A stretch of 64,000 bases of DNA from Candidatus Eiseniibacteriota bacterium (GCA_005893305.1 VBOZ01000029.1:169072-233071); one strand, 5' to 3'; shown: positions 6,910 through 64,000, counted from the stretch's first letter. A program made the numbers and translations. The notes: generated by a model not told the origin, from the letters alone.

Positions 6910-7752
6910 CTAATGAACGGGATACGCCGGCGCCACGGTGGAAGTGGAAGCCGTGACGCAACCGTTTTGCATCTCGGCGAGGCCCGGCTGCGCCCTTCCC
7001 AGGAGCGACTCGCCTCCCGTGATCTGCCCGATCCCATCCAGGAATGCGAGGTAGATCCAGGAGTCTCGGCCCAGTGGGGACCGAAGCGGCCGCGGGGGAA
7101 GATGAATGATGGTGTCGTCCGGGACGAGCGGCACTTCGACGGCCGCCTCCTGCTGGCCCGCGTCGACTCCCGATGAGTCGCTCGGCGACAGCGTGAGCCG
7201 GGCCCTGATGCCGGACCGGATGGAGACGTCGCCGGACATCGCGAGGTCGGAGATCGGATTCAGATCGAACACCTCGCCCCTGACGACCATCGCGTCGACG
7301 AAGAGGTTGAGTGGAAGAGACGGGTTCAGGTCGAACGGCCCCTGATCGCACCGGCCCAAGCGGGTCCGGGGGGCGAGCGGGGATCCGCCGCCGACGTACT
7401 GGATCCAGAGATCCGGTGGACGCCCCACTTCCGCCCAGTCGAGTGCCTGAGGCTGAATCGACAGGGATCGGTCGTGGAGGAGCGCGATCCGCTCGCTGGA
7501 TGTTTCCTCGAGCGGAAGGGAAGTGCCGCGCTCGACCCTGCGGTAAGTCAGCCGCGCGCCGAATCCACCGGCCTTGATCGTGCCTCCCACCGTCACGCGC
7601 CCGCCCGGTCCGCCGCGGAGCGCGCCCGGGCTCATCGTGGGCTCGATGTGCAGGGCCATGGGGATCGTGACCGGCACGAATCGCATGATCCGCAGTACAG
7701 CTGAACTCGTCACGTCCAAGGGTTGCTCGCGCTGCGTGATCACCCTTGCCAT
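6910..7752 (-). CDS. Hypothetical protein A of the duplicated two-gene cassette; paralog of 9018-9917
   Basis: Start MARVITQ is preceded by AAGGAG. Residues shared with A' include LRIMRF.PVTIP, VGGTI.A.GFGARLTY, SERIALLHDR, GRPPDLWIQ, TRLGRCDQGPFDL and PIGRDSWIY. The track ORF extends to 7995, probably as a read-through artefact. Confidence 0.7.
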   Translation of the reverse strand: MARVITQREQPLDVTSSAVLRIMRFVPVTIPMALHIEPTMSPGALRGGPGGRVTVGGTIKAGGFGARLTYRRVERGTSLPLEETSSERIALLHDRSLSIQPQALDWAEVGRPPDLWIQYVGGGSPLAPRTRLGRCDQGPFDLNPSLPLNLFVDAMVVRGEVFDLNPISDLAMSGDVSIRSGIRARLTLSPSDSSGVDAGQQEAAVEVPLVPDDTIIHLPPRPLRSPLGRDSWIYLAFLDGIGQITGGESLLGRAQPGLAEMQNGCVTASTSTVAPAYPVH

Positions 7753-7843
7753 TGTGTGTCTCCTTTCATCACCTGGCGATTCGGCCGCCAACCGCTCCTC
7801 GTCCCCATACGGAAGGAAGTATCGCCACGGGGAGAAGGAGCCG

Positions 7844-7882
7844 CCATTCGATGGATTGCGGACTTGAGGATGAAAAACTACG
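7844..7882 (-). promoter_or_regulatory. Copy (b) of the conserved intergenic element (CCATTCGATGGATTGCGGACTTGAGGATGAAAAACTACGG) between B' and A
   Basis: About 95-130 nt upstream of the A start codon. The downstream ATACTTCCTTCCGTATGG also matches the sequence around the TPR gene start codon (ATACTTCCTTACGTATGG). Confidence 0.5.
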
Positions 7883-8042
7883 GATGGTTCGGGTTGCGAT
7901 TTGCAAGGAGAACGCGGGCCGAGTTGGCGAATGCGATGAAGATCGCGCCCAAAAGGGGTGAGCGCCGGATGCTTGGTCGCCACTCCCGACGACATGGGTC
8001 ATCCGGCGCTCCGGAAGGCATCCATTTTTTGCGAGTTTCAGA

Positions 8043-9002
8043 TCAAATAGAACCACCTCCTCTCCAAGGTTTCCCGTTCCGAGCACCCGCGCGAGGGACG
8101 AATCGCCCCAGGGGGTGCCCGAGTCCGTCCAAGAAGGAGATCGCGCGCAACGGATGAGCGGGTGTCGTCCTCGACATCGGCTGATCGGGGATGCGAACAG
8201 TCTGGCCGATCGGAATCGCAACGGCTTCGGTGGCGGCGACCAGGGGCTCGTCGTCGTACCGATCCGGCTCGCGCCACGGATACATGCAGTGCGCGAGGAT
8301 GCCGCGGAGAAACACGAGGTTGCCGCCAATGGTGGACCGAGAGCTCGGCACGAGAGACAAGGTGTCTGTCGCGATCTCCACCGTCACCGCCACGGGGACG
8401 TGGAAGGAAAGCGCGAATCCATGCGGCTCTCGGTCACAAGGTCCGACCTCGCAGGTCTCGGAGATGCGGGTGCCGTCCCCGTCGTGGAATCGAATGCGGA
8501 TCGGCGCACCGGGATCGATCGGGGCGCGGCTGGCCGCCGCCGCGACCGTGAACCATTCGCCGGGCGGGATCAGCGTCATCGTGTTCTGTTTGAAGCGGTC
8601 CGCGTTGAAATGACTCTGGTGGGCGTCCCGTCCGAAGCTGAGTACCGCAGCCAGCCCCGCGAGGACGACGGCGCCATCCAGGGTCACCCGGAACCCATGG
8701 GGATCGTGGCATTCCGTGAGGCGGACCGATCCCTGTACCTGTACGGGCATCGAGAGAGCAGCGGAGAAGCGCAGCATCCGAGACCGGTCCGAGCCGGGGT
8801 GAATTCTCTGTCGGTTCGATTCAGGTACGAGTGGGTGCGCCGCGTGCATTCTCTCCATGAGTCCTCCCGTTCCTATCGCGAATGCGTGAGCTCCATCTCT
8901 CGCATCGATCAATCTTCCGTGGCGATGCAGCCGGCGGTTCCGGTCTCGTGGGCGCGTAGCCCCGCTGGGGACACTCGGAGAGCTATAGGTCGGGTCCGCC
9001 AC
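8043..9002 (-). CDS. Hypothetical protein B' (paralog of 6136-6900)
   Basis: Clear paralogy to B. The true start may be the internal MERMHAAHP (about 8858), which has a GGGAGG ribosome-binding site; the longer track ORF begins 15 nt after the A' stop. Confidence 0.6.
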   Translation of the reverse strand: MADPTYSSPSVPSGATRPRDRNRRLHRHGRLIDARDGAHAFAIGTGGLMERMHAAHPLVPESNRQRIHPGSDRSRMLRFSAALSMPVQVQGSVRLTECHDPHGFRVTLDGAVVLAGLAAVLSFGRDAHQSHFNADRFKQNTMTLIPPGEWFTVAAAASRAPIDPGAPIRIRFHDGDGTRISETCEVGPCDREPHGFALSFHVPVAVTVEIATDTLSLVPSSRSTIGGNLVFLRGILAHCMYPWREPDRYDDEPLVAATEAVAIPIGQTVRIPDQPMSRTTPAHPLRAISFLDGLGHPLGRFVPRAGARNGKPWRGGGSI

Positions 9003-9017
9003 ACGGGTTCCTGGACG

Positions 9018-9917
9018 CTAGCGACCGCCACGGTCCAAATGCGTCCTCCTCTCCAGCAGCCCGTCCGGGCTGACCAATGAGCTTTCCACGACGCCGGGCT
9101 CCGCTTTCCCGAGTAACGACTCTCCGCCCGTCGGCCGGCCCGCTCCGTCCAGAAACGTGACGTAGATCCAGGAATCGCGCCCGATCGGCCCGTGCAGCAT
9201 CCGCCGCGGCAGCTGGACCTCGGTGCCGCCTGGAAACAACGACACATCGGCAGGCGTGGTCGGATCGCCCGGCCTCGGGGCCGGACCGCCGTTCTCGGTG
9301 AGGGTGAATCGCGCGACGATTCCGGTCCGGATGCAGATCTCCCCGGCCAGGGCGAGCATCGGCATGGAATAGGGATCGGATCTCTCCGGTCTCAGGATGG
9401 CTGCGTCCACGGAGATTCCCAGGGTGAGGTTTGGGGTCAGGTCGAATGGACCTTGGTCGCAACGGCCCAGGCGGGTGAGGCCCGTGACCGGGGTGCCTCC
9501 GCCGTCGAGGAACTGGATCCAAAGATCCGGAGGACGGCCCGCGACGGGGCGGTCCACGGCTCGCGGCGGGAGCGTCAGGGTCCGGTCGTGAAGGAGAGCA
9601 ATTCGCTCGCTGGTGACCTCATCGGCCGGCGTGGTGCCGCTTCCACGTTGGCGATAGGTAAGCCGGGCGCCGAAGCCTTCGGCCGTGATTGTTCCCCCCA
9701 CCGCGACGCGCACGCCCGGTCGGACGACGAGAGTTCCGGAGTTGACCTTGGGTTCAATGCGCATCGGCACCGGAATCGTGACGGGCATGAATCGCATGAT
9801 CCGAAGGGCGACGACGCCCGAATCCCGCGGGGATCGTCCTCGATGCGTCGAAAATTCATCCATGATGGAACTCCCTTTCCCGGCTGGCGGGCCTCCCCGC
9901 CTATCTTGCGTTTTCAT
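9018..9917 (-). CDS. Hypothetical protein A' (paralog of 6910-7752)
   Basis: 299-aa ORF. Its start overlaps the 3' end of the upstream sugar-transferase gene by about 17 nt, suggesting translational coupling. Confidence 0.7.
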   Translation of the reverse strand: MKTQDRRGGPPAGKGSSIMDEFSTHRGRSPRDSGVVALRIMRFMPVTIPVPMRIEPKVNSGTLVVRPGVRVAVGGTITAEGFGARLTYRQRGSGTTPADEVTSERIALLHDRTLTLPPRAVDRPVAGRPPDLWIQFLDGGGTPVTGLTRLGRCDQGPFDLTPNLTLGISVDAAILRPERSDPYSMPMLALAGEICIRTGIVARFTLTENGGPAPRPGDPTTPADVSLFPGGTEVQLPRRMLHGPIGRDSWIYVTFLDGAGRPTGGESLLGKAEPGVVESSLVSPDGLLERRTHLDRGGR

Positions 9918-59828: not shown

Positions 59829-61167
59829 GAGGCTGATCTGCCTTCTGGCGGTGACGCTGGCCGCGGAGCCGGCGCCGCCTCTCGTGGGCCGCGCCTTGGC
59901 TCAGTATCCCAGCCCCGTTCCGGCTCCTCCGCCCGAGGTCCCAAGCCCCGGCATCAGCCTGGCTCGACCGAGATTCTCCGCCGACGCGACGGTCCAGCCC
60001 GGCGAGACCGGTGAGCCCGAGGTCCGCATCGACTACCGCCTCGCGCGCAGCGAGCTCCTCTTCGAGCGCACTTCGTCCGGTTACCACGCTGCGTACGAGC
60101 TCCGGGCCATTTTCGTGAGCGAGAAGGGGAAGAGGGAGGTCGCGGGGGATGCCCACACCCGCGAGCTCCGGGTGGCGCGGTATACCGAGACCCAGGCGAT
60201 CGGAGACGACATCGCCGATCACATCCCATTCCGGGTGCCACCGGGCAAGTACCGGATCGAGGTCTACCTCACGGATCTGAACGCGGAGCGCACCTCCTCC
60301 ACGACGATTCCCCTCGAGGTGCCGGGGGTCGCCGCGGGACAGCTCTGGCTCACCGACCTCTACCTGGGTACCGTGGACTCCACGGGTAGCGCGGGGCAGC
60401 ATGCGGGTCTGATTCCGAATCCATCGCGCACCTTCGGAGACGAGCTTCCGCGCTTCGCGGCGGCAGGCGAGATCGTGGACAACCGGCCGGCCGGCGCCCC
60501 GGATTCCGCCTTTCAGCTGAGCTACAAGGTCCTGAACGAGCTTCAGGTCGCCGTGGCCCACGGCGACACTTCGATCGCGCGACGGGGCCCGCGCACTCCG
60601 TTTCTGATCCGCCCCGCCTTCGGCCCCTTGGAGGCGGCCTCGTATCGCGTCGTCGTCGAGCTCGTGAGCCCGCTCGTCACGATCAAGGGTCAGAAGAAGC
60701 CGAGCCCCATCCGCCGGGAGAAGGCGTTCACAGTCGTGCCCAGCTCGGCGAGCGCGGTGACCGATATCAAGACCTCCCTGGAGGTGGTGCGCTTGATCGC
60801 GACCGACGCGGAGTTGCGCGAGATGGACCGGCAGCGGACCCCGGAGGAGCGCCAGGCGTTCTGGGATGCCTTCTGGAAGAGCCGCGATCCGACCCCCGAG
60901 ACGCCCCGCAACGAGGCGCTGGAGGAGTTCTACAGGCGCGTGCGTTACGCGGATCAGCGCTTCGGCGTGGGGGGGCCAGGCTGGAAGACCGACATGGGCG
61001 CTACCTACATCCAGTACGGCCCGCCCGACGAGATCGTGCGGAACCCGTTCCGGTTCGACGGCCCGCCCGAGGAGATTTGGTACTACTATCAATCGCGGAG
61101 GGTCTTCACCTTCGTCGATCGGGACGGTTTTGGTCGCTATGAGCTTGACCGCGAACGCTCCCGATAG
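59800..61167 (+). CDS. GWxTD-domain protein (secreted)
   Basis: C-terminal GWKTDMGATYIQYGPPDEI...EIWYY matches the GWxTD signature. Signal peptide IKRLICLLAVTLAA. Start overlaps the upstream gene by about 29 nt. Confidence 0.7.
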   Translation: MHASSSSYIKRLICLLAVTLAAEPAPPLVGRALAQYPSPVPAPPPEVPSPGISLARPRFSADATVQPGETGEPEVRIDYRLARSELLFERTSSGYHAAYELRAIFVSEKGKREVAGDAHTRELRVARYTETQAIGDDIADHIPFRVPPGKYRIEVYLTDLNAERTSSTTIPLEVPGVAAGQLWLTDLYLGTVDSTGSAGQHAGLIPNPSRTFGDELPRFAAAGEIVDNRPAGAPDSAFQLSYKVLNELQVAVAHGDTSIARRGPRTPFLIRPAFGPLEAASYRVVVELVSPLVTIKGQKKPSPIRREKAFTVVPSSASAVTDIKTSLEVVRLIATDAELREMDRQRTPEERQAFWDAFWKSRDPTPETPRNEALEEFYRRVRYADQRFGVGGPGWKTDMGATYIQYGPPDEIVRNPFRFDGPPEEIWYYYQSRRVFTFVDRDGFGRYELDRERSR

Positions 61168-61633
61168 CGCCGGATCGGCACTCCAGAGCTGGGCCGAGTT
61201 CCTTGCCGCCCATCATCTTCGTGTCACCGAGCCGCGCCGGCTCATCGCCCAGGCGATCGCCCAGTCGCCGGGGCACTTCGACGCGGAGACGCTTCGGCTC
61301 CGGCTGAGGGGCCAGGGGCGGCGCCTCTCCCGCGCCACGATCTACCGGACTCTCGCCCTGCTCCAGAGCTGTGGGATCCTGAGAAGGGTGCAGCTCGTGG
61401 AGGGTACGCTCCACTACGAGCTCTCCCGTCCGAACGATCCGCACCATCATCTTGTCTGCCGGCGCTGCGGCTCCGTCCAGGAGGTCACCGACGCGTCGCT
61501 GACGCGAGCGGTCCGCGAAGCGGCTCGCAGGGCGGCCTTTGCGCCGGAGGAGTTTGTCCTACGCATTCGGGGCCTCTGCTCCCGATGCCGCGGATCGCGC
61601 GCCTCAGGGGGTCGACCTGAGCCATCAACATAA
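61139..61633 (+). CDS. Fur-family metalloregulator (Fur/Zur/PerR-type)
   Basis: Fur fold with DNA-binding helix RATIYRTL, metal-site His cluster HHHLVC, and two CxxC pairs (CRRCGSV ... CSRCRG). Confidence 0.8.
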   Translation: MSLTANAPDSAGSALQSWAEFLAAHHLRVTEPRRLIAQAIAQSPGHFDAETLRLRLRGQGRRLSRATIYRTLALLQSCGILRRVQLVEGTLHYELSRPNDPHHHLVCRRCGSVQEVTDASLTRAVREAARRAAFAPEEFVLRIRGLCSRCRGSRASGGRPEPST

Positions 61634-61651
61634 CCACTTACCACAACACAA

Positions 61652-61671
61652 GTTATCCCATTATAGATAAA
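61652..61671 (+). promoter_or_regulatory. Candidate Fur-family operator: AT-rich inverted repeat GTTATC-N8-GATAAA, immediately upstream of a putative -35
   Basis: The only AT-rich palindromic site in the Fur/porin intergenic region, and it resembles Fur/Zur box half-sites (GATAAT/ATTATC). Inferred, not confirmed. Confidence 0.35.
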
Positions 61672-61678
61672 TATTCGT

Positions 61679-61708
61679 TTGACACACCCTGGGGGCGGTG
61701 CCTATGGT
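61679..61708 (+). promoter_or_regulatory. Putative sigma70-type promoter (TTGACA-N18-TATGGT) for the downstream porin-like gene
   Basis: Perfect -35 hexamer with a plausible -10; implies a ~230-nt leader. Confidence 0.4.
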
Positions 61709-61938
61709 CCCCCGAAAATTTAGAGCGACGCTGGGGCGCTGCAGCGAAATAGTTTGAGCGACTTGGTCTTGTGCGACCCAACCCAAATACCTAACCGAAA
61801 GGGGGTGGCGGCTAGGTCCTAACGAGCAGCAACTGCTCTCTCGGATCTCCCTGGGACGATATCCAACTTCACTGTGTGATCGGCCCGGGCGGTAGACCCT
61901 GGATGGTCTAGGGTCCTAAAACAAGGAGGCGAACTCAG

Positions 61939-63258
61939 ATGTTTCAGCGCAAGCTGATTGTCGTTTTGGTCGTGGCCCTCGTCGCTTTGACGGCGGGAGT
62001 GAGTCAGGCGTCGCTGTCGCGCGTGGAAGGCATGGGGCTCGGAACGCCTCAGCTCAGCCAGTTCACGGACGACTACGCGAACATCTACTACTACCCGACA
62101 TCGGTCGTCCGGCAGAACAACCTGGTGCTCGCAGAGCTCGGCAACAACCCGGGCGGCTTCGTGGACGCGGTTTCGCACATTGACCAGAGCCTCACGCTCA
62201 TCAGGAATTTCCCGCGCTTCGGCTCCATCGCATTCCAGATGAAGCAGAACGCGCTCAACTCCGCGTTCCCGGGCAACCTCAATAATGAGATTTTCGACGT
62301 GATCTGGGGAACCGGCCTGGCGAAGATGGACATCGCCGTTCGCGTCGATGTGACGAATTCTTCGTTCAACCAGGACTTGAGCGGCGGCCCGACGCACAAC
62401 GAGGCTCACGGCGACGGCTTCCTGCCGGGTGACCCGTATCCGTTCGGCGCCTTATTCGTCAACGATATCATTGTGGGCACGGGCGTCGAGCTCAACACGT
62501 GGGGCGTGGGCCCTGCGATCGCCCTGCATCTGGCGAATGACAACCGCATCGAGGGTACGGTTGATTTCCGTCGCTACACGCTCGACCGCAAGACCTCCAC
62601 GGCAGGCGTGGCCGGCGAGTCGTGGAAGGACGGAGGAAACATGTCCTACGCGGTTGCTGCCCGTGGAATCCTCCATCAGGGCGACCGGGCGACGTGGTAC
62701 CCGGCATTCTGGTACATCAACGACGACCTGAGCTATGAGGTCAGGAACAACCCGGCCACCGTCGGCCCGCGCTCTGCCGACGAGACGTACAAGCAGCTTG
62801 GGGCCGGGATCTCTCACAACATGAGAGTGAACGACAACAACCTCCTGATCTTCGGCGCGTCCGTGTCGCAGTCGAAGGCGACGTACGACCGGACGGACAA
62901 CAACGACGGCGTCGCGAACGGCAACCTCAAGCACCGCGAGTTCAAGACGACGCTCGCGCCGCGCTTCTTCGCCTCGCTCGAGACCGACCTCACCCGCTGG
63001 CTCAAGGGGCGCCTCGGCGCGTCGAAGTCCATGCAGTCGGAGAACACCGAGACGTCCGACTTCAACACGGTCCCGGTGACCTCGAAGCTCAAGGAGCGGT
63101 TCTCGGACTTCGCGTTCAGCCTCGGCACGGGCATCAAGTTCAACAATTTCGACGTCGACATGACCCTGAACCAGTCCTTCCCGCTGTCGGGCGGCTGGGT
63201 TCTTTCGGGCGATCCGGCGACGCCGTTCACCCGCGTCTCGGGGACGTACCACTTCTAG
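61939..63258 (+). CDS. Outer-membrane beta-barrel protein (porin-like)
   Basis: Signal peptide MFQRKLIVVLVVALVALTAGVSQA, amphipathic beta-strand pattern and C-terminal aromatic residue (YHF). AAGGAGG ribosome-binding site. Lower GC and different codon choice (ttt, att, aat common) than its neighbours. Confidence 0.7.
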   Translation: MFQRKLIVVLVVALVALTAGVSQASLSRVEGMGLGTPQLSQFTDDYANIYYYPTSVVRQNNLVLAELGNNPGGFVDAVSHIDQSLTLIRNFPRFGSIAFQMKQNALNSAFPGNLNNEIFDVIWGTGLAKMDIAVRVDVTNSSFNQDLSGGPTHNEAHGDGFLPGDPYPFGALFVNDIIVGTGVELNTWGVGPAIALHLANDNRIEGTVDFRRYTLDRKTSTAGVAGESWKDGGNMSYAVAARGILHQGDRATWYPAFWYINDDLSYEVRNNPATVGPRSADETYKQLGAGISHNMRVNDNNLLIFGASVSQSKATYDRTDNNDGVANGNLKHREFKTTLAPRFFASLETDLTRWLKGRLGASKSMQSENTETSDFNTVPVTSKLKERFSDFAFSLGTGIKFNNFDVDMTLNQSFPLSGGWVLSGDPATPFTRVSGTYHF

Positions 63259-63305
63259 AAGAAAGTCTGAATCAAGGGCCCGGCGACGGGTCCAAAAAAG
63301 CCTGG

Positions 63306-63342
63306 GGCCGCTCGGCGTCATCGCCGGGCGGCCTTACTTTTT
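63306..63342 (+). terminator. Rho-independent terminator for the porin-like gene
   Basis: GGCCGCTCGGCG-TCAT-CGCCGGGCGGCC forms a 12-bp stem with one G·U pair, followed by TTACTTTTT. Confidence 0.7.
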
Positions 63343-63355
63343 GCAACGAAAGTAG

Positions 63356-63384
63356 TTGACACGGTACGGGCCGGTTTCTAAGTT
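63356..63384 (+). promoter_or_regulatory. Putative sigma70-type promoter (TTGACA-N17-TAAGTT) for the TonB-dependent receptor gene
   Basis: Consensus -35 with a reasonable -10 at 17-nt spacing; about 260-nt leader to the ATG. Confidence 0.45.
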
Positions 63385-63644
63385 GGGTGGGAAGCAAATG
63401 GATGGCGGCTCCAAGCCGGAACGTGGCCGCGCTGAGTCAGTGGGGAAGGAAGGCAAGGGGGTAACCAAAGAAAAACGCCGGAACGAGTGGAGAACAGCCG
63501 ATAGAGGGACCCAATGGCGTGCTGGAATGGACCGGGGTCATCGCGGAGCCGGTCTTGGGGACTCATGGGACAAGGGAGAACATCACTCAAGGAATGAGTG
63601 ACCCTCGGATGGCGCTTCCACAGGAGTGCAGGGGAGGGAGAGTC

Positions 63645-64000
63645 ATGACGCGACCTCGGATGCGTCGGAGGCTGGGCGTCGTCACGTTCATCGTGGCGTG
63701 CGCCTTTTTTGTTTTTGGGAAATCGTGGGCGGGAACGACGGGCACGATCAGCGGCACCGTCACGGACTCCAAGACCGGCGAGCCGATCGGGCTTGCCACG
63801 GTCACGATTCCGGAGCTCAAGCGCGGGGCGACGAGCGACGCCCAGGGCCATTACTACGTCACCAATCTGCCGGCAGGTAAGTACTCCGTACGGGTCGCGC
63901 TCCTCGGCTACGTCCCGCAAGCGCGGGAGGGGATCGAGGTATTCCCCGACTTCACGACGAAGCTCGACATACCCATGGAGCCCACGGTTCTCAAGGACGT
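63645..64000 (+). CDS. TonB-dependent receptor, N-terminal part (signal peptide + carboxypeptidase-regulatory-like domain); continues beyond the window end
   Basis: GGGGAGGGAG ribosome-binding site. N-terminus MTRPRMRRRLGVVTFIVACAFFVFG...GTISGTVTDSKTGEPIGLATVTIPELKRGATSDAQGHYYVTNLPAGKYSVRV is the CarbopepD_reg-like extension of SusC/TonB-dependent receptors. Confidence 0.75.
   Translation, partial: MTRPRMRRRLGVVTFIVACAFFVFGKSWAGTTGTISGTVTDSKTGEPIGLATVTIPELKRGATSDAQGHYYVTNLPAGKYSVRVALLGYVPQAREGIEVFPDFTTKLDIPMEPTVLKD

Follow-up and report, generated by a model that had tools for sequence, protein, structure and literature searches.

A conserved, structured leader with an upstream Shine-Dalgarno-like block on the mRNA of a probable major outer-membrane protein of Candidatus Eisenbacteria

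The 5′ leader described here belongs to the gene for an outer-membrane protein (OMP) in a 64,000-nt stretch of DNA from a Candidatus Eiseniibacteriota bacterium (GCA_005893305.1, VBOZ01000029.1:169072-233071); the whole stretch is called the window below, and coordinates are window positions. The first system with which it invites comparison is STAB-SD, a 5′ messenger RNA (mRNA) stabiliser of Bacillus thuringiensis cry3A, reportedly described by Agaisse and Lereclus in 1996. In cry3A, a Shine-Dalgarno (SD)-like element near -129 binds the 30S ribosomal subunit and blocks RNase J1 without starting translation (PMC4113751). The OMP leader likewise has a strong SD-like sequence (GAAAGGRGG, here called the pseudo-SD) more than 100 nt upstream of the start codon, at -134 to -148 as against -129 in cry3A; neither element appears to initiate translation, there being no usable start codon downstream of the one considered here; and both lie in the leader of a very highly expressed gene, in the present case presumably so. 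There are differences as well. STAB-SD is known in Firmicutes, depends on RNase J1 and is found at the 5′ end of a processed transcript, whereas the pseudo-SD belongs to a diderm and lies 70–98 nt from the start of its transcript, where there is no sign of processing, and 30S binding is a prediction.

A second comparison is with the Escherichia coli ompA leader, which is 133 nt long and has two hairpins, with a 5′-terminal stem-loop, on an mRNA that MicA and Hfq target; the long leaders that precede S-layer and major OMP genes can be taken together with it. They resemble the leader considered here in being structured, with hairpins upstream of an accessible and strong ribosome-binding site, and in belonging to a monocistronic mRNA for the most abundant envelope protein that ends in a strong terminator. 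The ompA leader is not known to share sequence or structural homology with this one, nor are partners like MicA and Hfq known for the latter. For the protein itself, the relevant system is PopA (Bd0427), the pentameric major OMP of Bdellovibrio bacteriovorus and part of a lipid-trapping superfamily (PDB 9gf0 and 9ga1), which in Fibrobacter and Treponema is represented by major or highly expressed proteins; PopA relatives are major, highly expressed OMPs, some of them in Fibrobacter and Ignavibacteria (PMC12228718).

In our judgement 61672–63342 is probably a self-contained, vertically inherited high-output unit, in which the leader would serve as a constitutive module for mRNA stability and translation. 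What points to high output is the conjunction of an UP-element-like tract and consensus -35 hexamer, a structured leader, an open SD, codon bias, a strong terminator, an abundant-looking mRNA and homology to major OMPs. The parts of the unit are as follows.

61672–61708, + strand: promoter, with an UP-element-like AT-rich tract AATATTCGT, -35 hexamer TTGACA, 18-nt spacer and -10 hexamer TATGGT; conserved in position
61679–61684, + strand: the -35 hexamer TTGACA, from the promoter scan
61703–61708, + strand: the -10 hexamer TATGGT, from the promoter scan
61715–61792, + strand: variable 5′ part of the leader, with hairpin P1 and a 10-nt palindrome; pairwise identity 0.40
61793–61808, + strand: invariant block AACCGAAAGGGGGTGG, containing the pseudo-SD GAAAGGRGGUG; predicted single-stranded
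61814–61848, + strand: hairpin P2, in which AGGUCC pairs with GGAUCU and encloses GAGC (61824–61827)-loop-GCUC (61835–61838); -14.6 kcal/mol
61850–61889, + strand: hairpin H3, in which CCUGGGACGAU pairs with AUCGGCCCGGG around a variable loop; compensatory changes
61895–61915, + strand: hairpin H4, GACCCUGG-AUGGU-CUAGGGUC (GACCCT-N9-AGGGTC in the DNA); -12.9 kcal/mol
61916–61941, + strand: A-rich unstructured tract with the SD AAGGAGG (61923–61929), a 9-nt spacer and the start codon ATG (61939); GGAGG and ATG invariant
61939–63258, + strand: OMP gene of PopA type, 439 amino acids, with signal peptide, helical plug-like N-terminus and β-barrel
61944–61957, + strand: hairpin H5 inside codons 3–7, UCAGC-GCAA-GCUGA, closed by a GNRA loop; paired throughout (100%) in 40 sequences
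63303–63342, + strand: intrinsic terminator, a 15-bp GC-rich stem (stem region 63303–63336, -30 kcal/mol) followed by CTTTTT

About 50 orthologous loci from across the phylum were compared. The exact window OMP sequence is present on metagenome contigs, and relatives at 59–75% identity occur in seven Candidatus Eisenbacteria metagenome-assembled genomes (MAGs). A search of metagenomes with a leader DNA pattern gave 32 loci, each with the pattern ~140 nt upstream of an OMP orthologue (52–99% identity), while 14 loci retrieved by protein similarity make up an unbiased set. The gene order FlgD_ig/LVIVD protein, GWxTD protein, [fur], OMP, TonB-dependent receptor is kept on the contigs with the exact sequence, in the seven MAGs, in the 32 metagenome loci and in six further loci found by protein similarity. 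The fur gene, for a Fur-family regulator, is carried by a minority of the ~50 loci (the window, L006, L007, L011, L014, L024/L030, L028, L032–L034, L036 and L045); in loci without it, the GWxTD gene is followed by 300–380 nt of non-coding DNA and then by the OMP gene. A conserved gene order with a variable fur suggests that the OMP unit has been inherited vertically and that fur is an optional insert upstream of its promoter. NCBI assigns two OMP orthologues, P0040 and P0140, to MAGs of Hyphomicrobiales and Planctomycetota; the P0040 contig has the full Eisenbacteria gene order, so both labels look like binning or labelling errors.

The leader is ~225 nt long, close to the ~230 nt given for it in the initial annotation, and consists of the variable 5′ part and a conserved core (61793–61957). 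Over the 14-locus unbiased set, pairwise identity is 0.67 in the core and 0.40 in the 5′ part, compared with 0.65 for all positions of the coding sequence, 0.56 for its third positions and 0.97 for its first 21 nt. An nhmmer profile of the leader finds exactly one copy per locus, at 61793–61959 in the window, and cmscan (E≤1) finds no Rfam match in 61000–64000. To judge from these alignments, the leader would constitute a phylum-wide family of structured 5′ untranslated regions (UTRs) not yet described.

The sequence AAC(C/G)GAAAGG(G/A)GGUG, which includes the pseudo-SD, is invariant in 14 of 14 unbiased loci. The pseudo-SD lies 134–148 nt upstream of the ATG and 70–98 nt after the presumed start site. 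In 31 of 32 leaders it has no ATG, GTG or TTG 4–14 nt downstream, and scanning of the leaders for start codons revealed no leader peptide after it. Its pairing partners are inconsistent from one sequence to another, which suggests that it is single-stranded. As to complementarity to the ribosome, GAAAGGAGGUG is the exact complement of the canonical 16S ribosomal RNA 3′ tail, CACCUCCUUUC.

Downstream of this block the leader folds, as the initial annotation had proposed to check, into hairpins that covary. In the structure composed of H1′, H2, H3, H4 and H5, 96.2% of cells are paired (28 unique leaders), and nine pairs are changed on both sides, against 5.0±1.1 in shuffles (0 of 500 reach nine) and at most three in slid controls. 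H3 has 8 of its 11 pairs changed on both sides, in 43 cells (40 unique cores), with one pair CG in 17 and UA in 15. H4, the GACCCT-N9-AGGGTC hairpin noticed at the outset just before the ribosome-binding site, is 97.5% paired with seven of eight pairs changed on both sides (40 sequences), and in L046, the most divergent locus, its stem is fully compensated (GAUUCCGAG/CUCGGAAUC). In P2, averaged over 29 leaders, the outer helix has a pairing probability of 0.76 and the inner helix one of 0.95; G·U becomes A-U in L032 and L039, and both arms are lost together in L046. Pair counts for this hairpin on MAFFT alignments are unreliable because of a 1-nt register shift, and anchor-based folding was used instead. 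The variable 5′ part holds a hairpin as well. In the window, P1 pairs CGCT (61737–61740) with AGCG (61757–61760); across the loci it is 71% paired, with six pairs changed on both sides, and its covariation score is 0.235, a value attained by 0 of 500 shuffles (0.136). It covaries between clades and is weak and register-shifted in the window's own clade. The perfect 10-nt palindrome pointed out earlier, CGCTGCAGCG, is indeed present at 61737–61746, within this variable part, and is not conserved.

The ribosome-binding site AAGGAGG was correctly placed at 61923–61929, and its GGAGG is invariant. It is unpaired in the consensus structure. The suggestion that H4 might sequester it finds no support in the alignment: the hairpin ends 8 nt before the SD and excludes it, and no covarying, conserved pairing to the SD was found. 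A long-range pairing of GAAA with UUUC at the start codon was also considered and was not upheld with 28 sequences.

The fifth hairpin lies within the coding sequence. In 25 unique genes, codons 2–6 (TTT CAG CGC AAG CTG) show no nucleotide change, while among other columns with an invariant amino acid only 7 of 92 keep a single codon; codon 2 is the only TTT among the 27 Phe codons of the OMP gene. The sole variant of H5 is in L045, where A-U becomes G·U, and nucleotide conservation stops exactly where the hairpin ends. As these gene alignments demonstrate, at the level at which alignments can, the first OMP codons are under nucleotide-level selection. A scan flagged H5 as a possible attenuator terminator (TCAGCGCAAGCTGA followed by TTGTCGTTTT, 61944–61966); the U-rich tail is not conserved in orthologues, and the candidate was dropped.

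At the upstream end of the unit, TTGACA-N18-TATGGT (61679–61708) is the only promoter-like site in 3 kb (0.4 expected), and the initial annotation was right to call it a promoter. Its position is conserved: every locus that reaches that far has TTGACA-N17/18-TAnnnT at a constant distance from the leader, with a promoter-to-ATG distance of 223–233 nt in the eight loci first compared. What the promoter alignment conserves is the -35 hexamer, a TAnnnT -10 hexamer at 17–18 nt, and an AAAT(A/T)TT tract just upstream. Transcription would start at ~61715 in the window. Transcript-like contigs (below) start just downstream of the promoter and never upstream. The site therefore has the hexamers, the 16–18 nt spacing, the conservation and, if contig ends are taken as transcript ends, the downstream transcript starts of a sigma-70 promoter. 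At the other end, the strong terminator first noticed after the OMP gene, with its 15-bp stem of -30 kcal/mol and CTTTTT, is conserved in orthologues with compensatory changes. A second hairpin, GGGCCCG-GCGA-CGGGUCC (63276–63293, -14.9 kcal/mol), stands between the OMP stop codon and the terminator and also covaries in orthologues.

Many OMP homologues are found on contigs of 1.48–1.66 kb. The orthologue P0062 is present in 42 collection blocks, with every contig that carries it shorter than 2 kb. Ten of these contigs were read. They are 1577–1658 nt long and start 203–240 nt upstream of the ATG; none of the ten includes the promoter; and the longest begins with CCGGTTTTGAGG, the conserved motif found after the -10 hexamer in genomic loci (the +1 motif). 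An Illumina adapter is fused to the 5′ end of one contig. Seven of the ten end inside the terminator hairpin, 44–59 nt past the stop codon, and three read through into the receptor promoter. L061, with an OMP 83% identical to that of the window, runs from the equivalent of ~61726 to the foot of the terminator, and the contigs of L013, L015, L019, L035 and L038 behave similarly. In all (L051–L062 and the five loci just named), there are dozens of 1.5–1.66 kb contigs, from many different samples, that comprise exactly the leader, OMP gene and terminator. We infer that an abundant monocistronic mRNA was assembled from complementary DNA (cDNA) in these cases and that the assemblies were deposited as “metagenome” contigs. 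If so, the concern that the leader might not be transcribed can be set aside, at least for the orthologues.

Taken as a mechanism, the near-consensus sigma-70 promoter would give a monocistronic mRNA of ~1.6 kb. The pseudo-SD would hold a 30S subunit, as the cry3A STAB-SD does, and the leader hairpins would shield the 5′ region from nucleases. The hairpins would also occupy a CU-rich segment able to pair with the true SD, and so leave the real ribosome-binding site free. On the analogy with cry3A, 30S binding and mRNA stabilisation by the leader are plausible functions, and the leader is possibly STAB-SD-like. High expression of the OMP gene is presumed throughout.

Several observations weigh against this account. 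Complementarity of the pseudo-SD was scored against the canonical 16S tail CACCUCCUUUC, which may not be that of Eisenbacteria. The leader core is about as conserved as the coding sequence (0.67 and 0.65), and the invariance of GAAAGGNGGTGG, GAGC, GCTC and GGATC in L013–L044 was imposed by the search pattern. One pair between the pseudo-SD and CUYCC covaries (GC in 17, AU in 7), hinting at intramolecular pairing rather than ribosome binding. This covariation is limited to one clade and the folding probability is near 0, so that the anti-anti-SD helix proposed by RNAalifold was rejected and is kept here as a caveat. The assembled transcripts extend upstream beyond the pseudo-SD, with no cry3A-like processed 5′ end there; only the L062 contig starts inside the pseudo-SD. 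The cDNA nature of the contigs is itself deduced from their boundaries and one adapter. Finally, the invariant unpaired blocks would also fit a specific trans-acting factor or a ligand.

A bolder form of the proposal, which we put forward tentatively and think somewhat improbable, is that the leader represents a new class of cis-acting RNA in which an invariant 11-nt pseudo-SD ~140 nt upstream of the start codon captures ribosomal subunits and so stabilises the OMP mRNA or loads ribosomes onto it, or else that the same blocks are the sensor of an orphan translational riboswitch or a protein-binding switch.

Of the rival explanations, the one that survives best would make the leader a conditional translational switch instead of a constitutive stabiliser. 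It might act as an orphan riboswitch or RNA thermometer, or offer a platform to a trans-acting small RNA (sRNA) or a GGA-binding protein such as CsrA, with the invariant unpaired blocks as sensor or binding sites. We regard this as unlikely, though as the strongest of the competitors. The blocks are long and flank covarying helices. None of the hairpins has a U-run after it, so that control, if there is any, would be exerted on translation. Conserved alternative pairings can be drawn (UCUCC with the SD GGAGG, and GGAUCU with GGGUCC), but they show no covariation and have folding probabilities near 0, and the SD stands open in the consensus structure. At E≤1 no Rfam family matches the leader. 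For CsrA in particular, there are GGA motifs in GGAUC, the H4 loop (GGAUGG) and the SD, spaced like CsrA targets, and the H4 loop keeps its GGA where it has otherwise diverged (L018, L021, L035 and L039). The pattern expected of a CsrA leader, GGA in a hairpin loop and in the SD, is thus present in most sequences; however, the loop GGA is missing in two lineages, L038 and L046, which counts against the CsrA hypothesis. Neither csrA nor hfq was found in ~350 kb of sampled sequence, too small a sample to be informative.

The next alternative is the model of the initial annotation, in which Fur, Zur or PerR encoded by the upstream gene binds an inverted repeat by the -35 hexamer and represses the porin in response to metal. 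Two further features are needed here.

61139–61633, + strand: Fur-family regulator gene, 164 amino acids, Pfam FUR; 29-nt overlap with the upstream GWxTD gene, at the stop codon of the latter
61652–61671, no strand: inverted repeat GTTATC-N8-GATAAA; probably not an operator

The regulator gene is genuine, and directly upstream as had been claimed: residues 26–141 match Pfam FUR (PF01475) with an E-value of 5.6e-26 (91.5 bits against a cutoff of 23.1), and there are two CxxC motifs of a structural zinc site, CRRC at residue 107 and CSRC at residue 147. It cannot be assigned to a subfamily by NCBIfam equivalogs, all of which score below their cutoffs (best Bacillus-type Fur, 71 bits against 220; PerR, 55; Zur, 43), and its PDB matches include Fur, Zur and PerR at broadly comparable scores. 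The gene calls on the source contigs (L001–L005) skip this open reading frame (ORF), leaving a gap between the GWxTD and OMP genes in spite of the strong Pfam match; the 29-nt overlap with the GWxTD gene is the likely cause.

The repeat, too, exists, at 61652–61671, with arms that agree at five of six positions. It had been described as lying at the -35 hexamer; in fact it ends 7 nt upstream of it and there is no overlap. As an operator it fares badly. An equally good inverted repeat arises in 64% of shuffles of the same 45-nt AT-rich segment, which is chance level. Scans with canonical consensus sequences, a prediction proposed together with the model, give background: the best Fur-box match is 10/19, a score equalled by 353 sites in the window, and no PerR or Zur box is present in the segment. 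In L028, whose OMP is 99% identical, the repeat is broken by two substitutions (AGATAA to CCATAA), and it is absent from ~10 other fur-carrying loci in the promoter-region alignment, where the 20 nt that bear it are variable with fur-carrying loci included. Most orthologous loci have no fur and yet keep the promoter and leader. The TonB-dependent receptor gene 3′ of the OMP gene speaks for the model, and the arrangement does recall Fur-repressed outer-membrane genes that have a Fur box over the promoter, with a Fur-family gene adjoining OMP and TonB-receptor genes and an AT-rich, imperfect palindrome near the -35; it is unlike them in that there is no Fur-box match, the repeat is not conserved and fur is dispensable for the locus. 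No motif peculiar to fur-carrying loci was found at the TonB-receptor promoter. One point gives the spot itself some interest, namely a clean TGTGA-N6-TCACA palindrome at the same position in one clade without fur, so that it may be a general regulator site. All told, we consider Fur control through this repeat very unlikely. We propose instead, as part of the favoured account, that fur is an accessory neighbour, co-transcribed with the upstream GWxTD gene, and not the regulator of the OMP promoter.

The fur-less clade in question comprises L017, L022, L026/L044, L040/L043 and L041. Its palindrome TTGTGAATAnATTCACAA is near-perfect and of CRP/FNR type, and is centred where the window has its inverted repeat (61652–61671), upstream of the -35 hexamer. 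This position may be a lineage-specific site for an activator or repressor, as far as can be read from the alignment. Two shorter motifs nearby are conserved. A yTAAGt motif (61629–61640 in the window), ~48 nt upstream of the -35 hexamer, is found with or without fur, its TAA being the fur stop codon in the loci that carry that gene, and cTTAc, ~25 nt upstream of the -35 hexamer, is likewise conserved.

That base composition falls over this region, as first reported for ~61630–63300, is readily seen: GC content is 0.54–0.64 between ~61500 and 63600, against 0.65–0.75 in the surroundings (~0.70 before). The OMP gene was said to differ in codon usage from its neighbours, and so to have been acquired by horizontal gene transfer (HGT) or to be highly expressed. 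Its GC at first, second and third codon positions (GC1, GC2 and GC3) is 0.559, 0.430 and 0.877, and GC3 in neighbouring genes is 0.85–0.90. Codon choices go in the same direction as those of the genome and are stronger (AAG 1.00, CAG 1.00, TTC 0.96), so the gene follows the genome's preferences more strictly and has no foreign signature. With native GC3 and low GC1 and GC2, the dip can be put down to the non-coding leader and the Asn/Phe/Tyr/Lys/Asp-rich composition of a β-barrel. Of the two possibilities offered, high expression is the likely one. A horizontally acquired island with fur and the OMP gene would account for the fall in GC from ~0.70 to 0.54–0.64 between 61500 and 63600, but it is contradicted by the GC3 of the OMP gene (0.877, equal to that of its neighbours), by codon preferences that agree with the genome, by the same position of the gene in ~50 loci across the phylum and by the lack of flanking repeats or mobility genes, and on these comparisons it has next to no credibility. 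The most deviant codon usage in the window is elsewhere, in minus-strand ORFs at 6910–9917 with GC3 of 0.73–0.76, against 0.85–0.90 in other parts, and a distance in relative synonymous codon usage (RSCU) of 0.31–0.45.

The OMP protein belongs to no Pfam family. It has more than 270 close homologues, all annotated as hypothetical, and among those with an organism name, most bear an Eisenbacteria label. When 1.84 billion cluster representatives were searched with a profile, there were 24 matches at E≤1e-30, 181 at ≤1e-10 and 539 at ≤1e-3, with one tight orthologous cluster followed by a sharp drop to distant relatives that match mainly the C-terminal half. The AlphaFold2 model (predicted local distance difference test, pLDDT, 75; predicted template modelling score, pTM, 0.75) has short N-terminal helices and then 16–18 strands. 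Its best structural matches are to the Bdellovibrio PopA pentamer (Foldseek E 1.8e-10), and the monomer model is a plugged barrel of ~16 strands with a high outer wall, as in the PopA fold, which bears out the description of 61939–63258 as a porin-like OMP. PopA and the window OMP share an N-terminal helical plug-like segment, a barrel of ~16 strands and long “outer wall” strands; they differ in that sequence identity is only 12–14% and the window OMP is ~100 residues longer. By sequence it falls short of the NCBIfam PopA family NF053618 (44.7 bits against a cutoff of 150, E 1.2e-11, with only the C-terminal part matched). Fibrobacter and Ignavibacteria are generally placed in the Fibrobacteres-Chlorobi-Bacteroidetes (FCB) group. 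The window OMP is probably the major outer-membrane protein of the organism.

The TonB-dependent receptor gene has a conserved promoter of its own (TTGACA at 63356–63361, N17, TAAGTT), ~14 nt after the T-run of the OMP terminator. It is followed by a second, unrelated structured leader of ~260 nt (63343–63644; L006–L012), again without an Rfam match, with long-range helices GUGGA:UUCCAC, GCCG:UGGC and GAGGG:CCCUC, a hairpin CACUC-AGGGAUn-GAGUG, and compensatory changes in 22 predicted pairs. By nhmmer there is no homology between the OMP and receptor leaders. The two have in common the sequence ACCCT(C)GGATGG, at 61896 and 63601, 43 and 44 nt upstream of the OMP and receptor starts, which occurs once elsewhere in 128 kb. 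It may be a site for a shared trans-acting factor, going by position and sequence; the copy in the receptor leader forms the 3′ side of a long-range helix, and receptor orthologues do not conserve its GGA. The sequence was rejected as a shared element and is probably a coincidence.

To our knowledge, Candidatus Eisenbacteria have no cultured member, and their envelope biology and gene control are known from sequence only. To this the leader adds a structured 5′ UTR that is found phylum-wide and had not been described, backed by covariation and by apparent transcripts. If ribosome capture is its true function, it would be the first element of STAB-SD or standby type from outside the Firmicutes, as well as the first on the major OMP mRNA of a diderm; the idea that pseudo-SD stabilisers which bind ribosomes exist outside Gram-positive bacteria is testable. 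The comparison also indicates that, when orthologous loci are taken into account, a regulator gene beside a palindrome close to a promoter predicts control poorly. Lastly, the probable major OMP of the phylum would be a PopA-type barrel, extending a superfamily that was defined structurally only in 2025.

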